Position numbers and translations under genes: made by a program. Below are positions 6,247 to 6,403 of a stretch of 6,468 bases of DNA, in pieces. How positions within the stretch are numbered: the stretch's first letter is position 1; each line of letters starts with the position of its first letter. Origin of the DNA: a virus (Duplodnaviria > Heunggongvirae > Uroviricota > Caudoviricetes); IMG/VR virus record IMGVR_UViG_2703719355_000007. One strand, written 5' to 3'. The notes under the pieces were generated by a model, which was given only the letters and a program-made list of their open reading frames with translations, ran no database searches and was not told the origin of the DNA.

Positions 6247-6318
6247 GGGTCAGTCGTATAAAGGTCATTACGGAAGGCTGTTAACCTTCTTATCGTGGTT
6301 CGAGTCCACGCTGGTCCC
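6247..6318 (+). tRNA. tRNA-like gene, atypical; anticodon GUU (Asn) by manual fold; no encoded 3' CCA
   Basis: Manual cloverleaf: acceptor GGGTCAG/CTGGTCC (two G-U pairs), D-loop with GG, perfect anticodon stem GAAGG/CCTTC around loop CTGTTAA, T-arm CGTGG-TTCGAGT-CCACG. The stem is followed by C-GCCA rather than N-CCA. Confidence 0.5.
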
Positions 6319-6327
6319 GCCAAATAT

Positions 6328-6403
6328 GCTGGTTTAGCTCCAATGGTAGAGCAGTCGCCTTGTAAGCGAATGGGTAGCGGTTCAAGTCCGTTAACCAGCA
6401 CCA
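6328..6403 (+). tRNA. tRNA, anticodon UGU (Thr) by manual fold; 3' CCA encoded
   Basis: 76-nt cloverleaf: perfect acceptor stem GCTGGTT/AACCAGC, U8, D-arm GCTC-CAATGGTA-GAGC, anticodon loop CTTGTAA, T-arm AGCGG-TTCAAGT-CCGTT, discriminator A then CCA. One A-G mismatch at the base of the anticodon stem. Confidence 0.7.

Follow-up and report, generated by a model that had tools for sequence, protein, structure and literature searches.

The window, the whole stretch of 6,468 nt analysed here, carries exactly two tRNA genes, both on the + strand according to an ARAGORN run over its full length, placed in tandem shortly after the gene for a late antiterminator. The features that define the locus, numbered from the first letter of the window, are listed below.

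1539–3311, − strand: an open reading frame of 590 aa (the cargo ORF), lying on the opposite strand with ninE on one side and the HNH/ninG genes on the other.
5665–6183, + strand: the late antiterminator gene Q, of the phage 21 type (Pfam PF06530, Phage_antitermQ, E = 1.1e-25).
6161–6190, + strand: the late promoter PR′ (TTGACA, 18 nt, CATAAT), with 11 of 12 matches to the consensus.
6199–6244, + strand: the qut/tR′ region, a leader hairpin with a run of seven U (U7), from RNA folding and homology to phage Sf6.
6247–6318 as called by ARAGORN, or 6247–6322 in the favoured register described below, + strand: tRNA-Asn, anticodon GUU (ARAGORN, Rfam).
6328–6403, + strand: tRNA-Thr, anticodon UGU, 76 nt (ARAGORN, Rfam; tRNA-Thr in PGAP).

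Both tRNA genes score well above the gathering threshold of 29 bits of the Rfam family RF00005, with 53.9 bits for tRNA-Asn and 61.5 bits for tRNA-Thr. A first-pass annotation, made from the letters of the DNA, had described two tandem tRNA genes after Q and had proposed ARAGORN as a check; the program called both elements (anticodons gtt and tgt), with the same coordinates and the same GUU and UGU assignments. The second gene is canonical with an encoded CCA, as that annotation stated: the tRNA-Thr has a regular 7-bp acceptor stem followed by the discriminator base and CCA at 6401–6403. It is the majority allele of its kind, the commonest form with 62 loci, and is identical at 76 of 76 positions to the tRNA-Thr of phage HK446 and 100% identical to that of Sf6. 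The remark that these anticodons are not the ones of the ileZ/argN/argO genes of Stx phages is likewise borne out, GUU and UGU being the only two found.

The pair sits at the start of the late leader. The Q gene has a homologue in the E. coli genome NZ_CP148401 (at a locus 99.8% identical to the window) that PGAP names ‘antiterminator Q family protein’, and the Sf6 annotation describes the homologue there as similar to phage 21 Q. The near-consensus sigma-70 promoter PR′ overlaps the end of Q, and its counterpart in Sf6 is annotated as ‘nearly identical to phage 21 late promoter’. Downstream, the tR′ hairpin folds with −21.1 kcal/mol (centroid −20.2, z = −3.8), a stability reached by none of 200 shuffled sequences, and the stretch of Sf6 homologous to 6199–6244 is annotated as tR′ and qut. 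A simple terminator scan gave no call at tR′, where folding revealed the hairpin and U-run, probably because the scan’s rule of a 3–8-nt loop and a regular stem is unsuited to an interrupted stem. The tRNA-Asn gene starts 2 nt past the U-run. In Sf6 the annotated order is PR′, qut, tR′, tRNA-Asn and tRNA-Thr (‘similar to phage 21’), holin, endolysin and Rz/Rz1; this order recurs in NZ_CP148401, the best-matching E. coli genome (99.8% identity), where genes for holin, endolysin and spanin lie downstream. Because the pair lies directly behind tR′, which would act as an intrinsic terminator overridden by Q, the tRNAs are expected to be transcribed mainly when Q lets RNA polymerase read through, and host enzymes (RNase P and those of 3′ processing) would presumably excise them from the late transcript.

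A 369-nt stretch of the locus has matches in 98 phage records; in 43 of these the match covers 80% or more of the stretch, at 97–99.5% identity. The full-length matches include Sf6, BTP1, SPN9CC, vB_SosS_Oslo and Bas106, many with both tRNAs annotated, and they place the window in near-identity with the reference cassettes of the phage 21/Sf6 type, which occupy the same site between Q–PR′–tR′ and the lysis genes. The tRNA-Asn gene is also present in phage 21, SfI, ST64T, PS3, HK446, phage L and others. Searched by this gene, the cassette was found in 368 of 5,426 complete E. coli genomes, and among viral contigs a 75-nt tRNA-Asn followed by a 76-nt tRNA-Thr is the dominant architecture (91 loci). 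The Asn/Thr cassette is already in print (PMC3636060, PMC8022706), and the slot it occupies, at the late operon’s 5′ end, is also a topic of the paper on phage L (PMC8022706). The window pair is thus the well-known Asn/Thr cassette of lambda-like phages, just past the late-gene switch; it is already known and not new.

Several variants of the cassette were seen in the course of the survey. The genome of HK446 (JQ086372.1) contains a 75-nt tRNA-Asn(GUU) at 35097–35171, 5 nt upstream of its tRNA-Thr, and its GenBank record annotates zero tRNAs. Upstream of the HK446 cassette lie a lambda-type Q, PR′ and tR′, which indicates that the cassette moves between Q modules. In the same slot, after tRNA-Asn, other IMG/VR loci (L052, L075, L169, L171, L196 and others) have Gly(UCC), Phe(GAA) or Arg(UCU) as alternative partners, and phage L has Leu(UAA). 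In locus L145 and six other IMG/VR loci the tRNA-Asn is followed by a chimeric tRNA-Thr-like sequence, with a phage-type 5′ half and with an anticodon arm and T arm like those of the host thrU; its acceptor strands are unpaired and it receives no ARAGORN call. It is possibly a recombinant between phage and host tRNAs.

The tRNA-Asn gene was described in the first-pass annotation as structurally atypical, with two G–U pairs in the acceptor stem, no encoded CCA and a distance of 9 nt to the next gene. It is indeed unusual, although the oddity is not intrinsic and stems from a private 1-nt insertion in an ordinary, widespread gene. The window allele is 76 nt long, with one extra G (G6313 or G6314) in its 3′ acceptor strand relative to Sf6 and to HK446; in the alignment with Sf6, CGCTGGTCCCGCCA in the window stands against CGCT-GTCCCGCCA in Sf6. 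The usual 75-nt allele has an acceptor stem of G1–C72, G2–C71, G3–C70, a U4·U69 mismatch, C5–G68, A6–U67 and G7–C66, followed by G73 and CCA, and the window allele departs from this U4·U69, G73, CCA pattern of the phage 21/Sf6-type cassette. It is a mutated copy of a cassette member and not a separate family; the odd look of the gene comes from the one extra G.

The insertion allows two registers of the acceptor stem. In register A, which is that of ARAGORN, Rfam and the earlier annotation, the stem is regular and contains two G·U pairs (G3·U70 and U4·G69), position 73 is C, CCA is absent and the spacer to tRNA-Thr is 9 nt. In register B the three outer pairs are moved by one base, giving G1–C, G2–C, G3–C, a bulged U and U4·G; G73 then lies at 6319, CCA is encoded at 6320–6322 and the spacer is 5 nt. 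The energies calculated here are −16.0 kcal/mol for register A and −18.7 kcal/mol for register B, so that B is 2.7 kcal/mol stabler and accounts for approximately 98% of the Boltzmann ensemble, A for about 1%. The two G–U pairs, the missing CCA and the 9-nt spacing are hence correct for the ARAGORN register but do not apply in the favoured one. The anticodon and G73 are the identity elements of E. coli AsnRS, a second reason to favour register B; unrelated phage tRNA-Asn genes, taken as a baseline from the scan of viral contigs, nearly all end in G73–CCA.

The wider phage tRNA-Asn family was gathered by a scan for the unusual D-arm, and 36 distinct sequences were aligned. The cloverleaf pairing holds in 96.8% of cells (36–52% in slid controls), and compensatory changes on both sides are seen at 16 of 20 pairs; the D-arm was set by the search pattern and is uninformative for covariation. 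The fold of the tRNA-Asn family is far beyond chance and the family is a real tRNA family. The tRNA-Thr also has compensatory acceptor variants (GCTGGTT/AACCAGC, GCCGGCT/AGCCGGC and GCTGTTT/AAACAGC). Among the tRNA-Asn pairs, 4:69 alone is usually unpaired (21 of 36 sequences), and 35 of the 36 sequences have G73. A U4·U69 (or U·C) mismatch, alignment columns 4 and 68, is kept across the lambdoid clade, with rare variants restoring the pair as U·G (L124) or G·U (L162). As it persists although pairs 5:68, 6:67 and 7:66 covary, the mismatch seems to be a trait that this clade conserves.

The 76-nt allele is correspondingly rare. Of 374 E. coli records, 1 (NZ_CP148401) has a full-length exact match and the remainder carry the 75-nt form; none of about 140 family members on viral contigs has the insertion, and the 72-nt ARAGORN call is found only in the window and in NZ_CP148401. 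These two sequences differ by four SNPs, one indel and a different IS1203 insertion, and have the extra G in common, whereas sister strains from the same project have the 75-nt form. A sequencing error was considered as the source of the extra G and is ruled out by its presence in two non-identical assemblies and by the 75-nt sisters, which together identify it as a real, recent and lineage-private mutation. Among 40 sampled rows, PGAP annotates tRNA-Asn in every full-length 75-nt one, whereas it places no tRNA feature on the 76-nt allele. The Rfam score drops from 55.3 bits for the 75-nt allele to 53.9 bits for the 76-nt allele, a loss of 1.4 bits. There is an annotation lesson in this, as a one-base indel moved the gene finders to a shifted register and caused PGAP to drop the gene altogether.

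The surrounding prophage is itself degraded. Window positions 1–62 are the end of an IS1203 element inserted into ninB, and in NZ_CP148401 the prophage is a remnant of approximately 10 kb bounded by two IS1203 copies (L001, 4064–5277 and 14976–16189), with a truncated DNA-packaging gene and without genes for immunity, replication or the virion. For 15 of the 20 best E. coli matches, homology to the window stops at 6270, inside the tRNA-Asn gene, and a tRNA(CAT) follows, which PGAP names Ile and ARAGORN names Met. E. coli prophages that share the nin, cargo and Q region mostly retain tR′ and the first 24 nt of tRNA-Asn (6247–6270), with one mismatch, as at L003 9189–9212 (NZ_CP027355), beyond which the sequence is unrelated. 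The break at 6270 is evidently a mosaic recombination junction inside a tRNA gene.

Our judgement leans slightly towards the tRNA-Asn of this prophage being a dead gene, a pseudogene, with the tRNA-Thr alone functional. The insertion is private to the window lineage and leaves the acceptor stem with a bulge or else with a shifted register in which the G73 of nearly all its relatives is lost, PGAP recognizes the 75-nt allele and passes over the 76-nt one, and in an IS-bounded remnant without structural genes selection on late functions has ended. On the other side, the generic Rfam model barely penalizes the 76-nt allele, the favoured register retains seven acceptor pairs, G73 and CCA while converting the U4·U69 mismatch into a U·G pair, and the remaining conserved tRNA positions are all intact. 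The insertion would thus give a bulged acceptor stem that still ends in G73–CCA, on a tRNA that is probably impaired. Since PGAP omits the allele and the remnant is riddled with IS elements, decay is likely, and relaxed selection followed by decay is the simplest reading of the sequence, from which we infer a loss of function. The G3·U70 pair of register A suggests a different fate, in which the 76-nt RNA would be charged with alanine and would misread Asn codons: G3·U70 is the main identity element recognized by AlaRS, and it is accompanied here by G1–C72 and G2–C71 in the register that both ARAGORN and Rfam call. This switch of identity is nonetheless extremely improbable, as register A makes up so little of the ensemble, leaves a 3′ tail of 5 nt instead of 4 nt and C73 instead of A73, and owes its G3·U70 to a private indel in a decaying prophage and not to a conserved design.

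The cargo ORF, which the first-pass annotation had called visibly rich in Asn and Thr, does contain 8.0% Thr and 7.5% Asn at 35% GC, and uses ACA for 26 of its 47 Thr codons (44 per 1,000 codons versus 8.9 in the host; odds ratio 5.1, P = 6e-10). A search for a defence or other function gave no Pfam or PADLOC match to the ORF, which matches only PHROG families of unknown function (PHROG 9230); it looks like a moron with an unassigned role. An AT-rich hairpin at 1442–1509, just 3′ of the ORF, is probably a terminator; an Rfam hit to MIR1444 at the same position, with 27.9 bits where the gathering threshold is 80, is spurious.

The composition of this gene had led to the suggestion that phage-borne tRNAs support the translation of AT-rich late or cargo genes. 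For the late genes the idea is published and receives modest support here, with ACA and AAC enriched approximately 1.6- to 1.7-fold; for the cargo gene it is not supported. That the tRNAs exist to support translation of the cargo ORF is very unlikely despite its low GC content, its wealth of ACA and its Asn content, because the ORF lies on the minus strand with its own flanks while the tRNAs stand behind tR′ and would need Q, because the 15 of 20 best E. coli matches that keep the cargo gene have the tRNA pair replaced beyond 6270, because over 100 phages and prophages have the cassette and lack the cargo gene (Sf6, HK446 and Bas106 among them), and because the cargo Asn codons are mostly AAT and not the cognate AAC.

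For the late genes, codon usage was compared between those of one phage, Bas106, the closest that is complete, and 37 genes of the host, all taken from a single 50-kb region. ACA occurs at 14.4 per 1,000 codons in the phage late genes and at 8.9 in the host (odds ratio 1.63, P = 0.002), and AAC at 30.0 and 18.0, respectively (odds ratio 1.69, P = 1.5e-6). In the Bas106 coat gene AAC accounts for 21 of 24 Asn codons, and ACA for 3 of 40 Thr codons. Published values are similar in part: in SfI, ACA stands at 17.3% versus 7.1% in the host, with no Asn bias seen (PMC3636060), and 24 of the 25 Asn codons in the coat gene of phage L are AAC (PMC8022706). In the host genome there are four genes for tRNA-Asn and one for tRNA-Thr(UGU). 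A codon-supply role for late genes is therefore modestly supported, in which the pair would serve the phage’s higher demand for ACA and AAC; the Asn side of this role is weak, given the four host genes for tRNA-Asn and a codon, AAC, that is not rare.

The two anticodons are also targets of tRNA-cutting defence systems. The AriB nuclease of PARIS depletes tRNA-Lys(UUU) alongside the Thr(UGU) and Asn(GUU) tRNAs, with tRNA-Lys(UUU) as its main target and needed for PARIS neutralization; it cuts between nucleotides 40 and 41, beside U36AAU39, and a U39 to A change abolishes cleavage, while resistant T5 versions of the Lys, Thr and Asn tRNAs jointly neutralize PARIS (PMC12409363). The OLD protein of P2 depletes the tRNAs for Thr(UGU), Gly(UCC), fMet and Val(UAC) as well as Pro(UGG), cutting after nucleotides 27–29, and Thr(UGU) tRNAs of several phages, including HK446, provided in trans gave strong rescue of OLD-sensitive phages where the host tRNA gave none (bioRxiv 10.64898/2026.07.10.737580). 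The HK446 tRNA-Thr, identical to that of the window, rescued HK97, HK542 and Bas34, whereas a single tRNA rescued neither lambda nor the toxicity of OLD; on these grounds, and because HK446 also encodes a protein inhibitor, Oad2, the authors doubt that counter-defence is the main role of the HK446 tRNA (bioRxiv 10.64898/2026.07.10.737580). According to the same preprint, the only tRNA encoded by HK446 is one for Thr(UGU) (bioRxiv 10.64898/2026.07.10.737580), so that the Asn member, unannotated in that genome, has been overlooked. Both the target list of AriB and the OLD rescue are taken from this literature.

The sequences of the window pair differ from the host tRNAs at the very places where these nucleases cut. 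Both phage tRNAs keep the 7-nt anticodon loop of the host, whereas their anticodon stems are wholly different: ACUGA/UCAGU in host tRNA-Thr against GUCGC/GCGAA in the phage, and GCGGA/UCCGU in host tRNA-Asn against GAAGG/CCUUC. The stem changes mean that position 39 is no longer U in either phage tRNA, being G in tRNA-Thr and C in tRNA-Asn, and position 41 differs too; the AriB site thus reads UAAGC↓G instead of the host UAAUC↓A in tRNA-Thr and UAACC↓U instead of UAAUC↓C in tRNA-Asn (arrow, cut). The 5′ anticodon-stem strands (nucleotides 27–31) also differ from the host in both. The pair accordingly has the anticodons of tRNAs that act against PARIS and OLD, Thr(UGU) being targeted by both AriB and OLD, Asn(GUU) by AriB, and both members carry substitutions at the cleavage sites; its anticodons are two of the three main validated AriB targets. 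The window tRNAs would be expected to resist the PARIS nuclease, and the pair would probably keep translation going when P2 OLD or PARIS AriB destroys the host versions, as the stems altered in both tRNAs are where OLD and AriB would cut. Given that the cassette is without tRNA-Lys(UUU), the pair by itself would not be expected to overcome the PARIS system that was tested.

Two accounts of the cassette as a whole follow from these data. On one, the pair would do no more than boost the decoding of ACA and of AAC/AAU in highly expressed late (virion) genes, with no part in resisting nucleases. The enrichment of both codons in Bas106, the AAC-rich coat genes of Bas106 and phage L, the ACA excess in SfI and the single host tRNA-Thr(UGU) gene all point this way. 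Against this stand the four host tRNA-Asn genes and the fact that AAC is a preferred codon, the missing Asn bias in SfI and the paucity of ACA in the coat gene; moreover, codon supply leaves unexplained why anticodon stems wholly unlike those of the host stand beside identical loops, and why the identical tRNA-Thr, but not the host tRNA-Thr at the same expression, rescues phages from OLD. We regard codon supply as the sole function as rather unlikely. On the other account, the Asn+Thr late-leader cassette would be primarily a counter-defence against Toprim abortive-infection tRNases such as OLD and PARIS, both members being cleavage-resistant replacements; we put this forward tentatively, as a possibility short of an even chance. 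If it is true, the occurrence of Gly(UCC), an OLD target, as an alternative occupant of the slot would fit the same logic. The carriers of the cassette are hundreds of temperate lambdoid and P22-like phages, and OLD and PARIS are spread by P2- and P4-type elements in the same hosts, so that temperate phages may use a small cassette in conflicts with tRNA-cutting defences.

Taken together, the window very probably holds a standard late-leader Asn-GUU/Thr-UGU cassette, which would serve codon demand and has a probable anti-nuclease role, and in which the tRNA-Asn carries an insertion that probably reflects decay. For the window itself, the pair is a textbook feature of the lambdoid late region and the odd gene a mutated copy in a dead prophage.

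Compared with known systems, the window pair is closest to the cassettes of phage 21, Sf6, SfI, ST64T/PS3, HK446 and BTP1, which have the same position, order and anticodons. Its tRNA-Asn is identical to that of the phage 21/Sf6 type save for the one inserted G, and the spacer measured from the CCA is 5 nt; it differs in being 76 nt long instead of 75, in being left out by PGAP and in its acceptor stem, where the extra G turns U4·U69 into a U·G pair with a bulged U, or else shifts the register. The ileZ–argN–argO cluster of Stx phages (933W type) occupies the same slot, after Q and a terminator and before the late genes, and presumably follows the same Q-dependent logic of expression, whereas the window is without CAU or Arg anticodons and so does not belong to that cluster. 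The host genes asnT/U/V/W (four tRNA-Asn copies per genome) and thrU (one tRNA-Thr(UGU) copy) have anticodons and 7-nt anticodon loops identical to those of the phage pair; the T-arm core GGTTCGAGTCC and G73 are common to host and phage tRNA-Asn, and A73 with G1–C72/C2–G71 to host thrU and phage tRNA-Thr. Every stem differs between host and phage, and the phage tRNA-Asn stands out further by its unusual D-arm (UCGUAUAAAGGUCAUUACG) and by a variable loop of 4 nt. The resistant tRNAs of virulent phages, those for Lys, Thr and Asn of T5 directed against AriB and those for Thr(UGU) of T4, Bas32 and Bas33 directed against OLD, have their target anticodons in common with the window pair, together with the retained host-type loop and the substitutions at positions 39 and 41 near the AriB cut; they come from large arrays of tRNA genes, whereas the window pair represents a two-gene cassette of temperate phages without tRNA-Lys(UUU).
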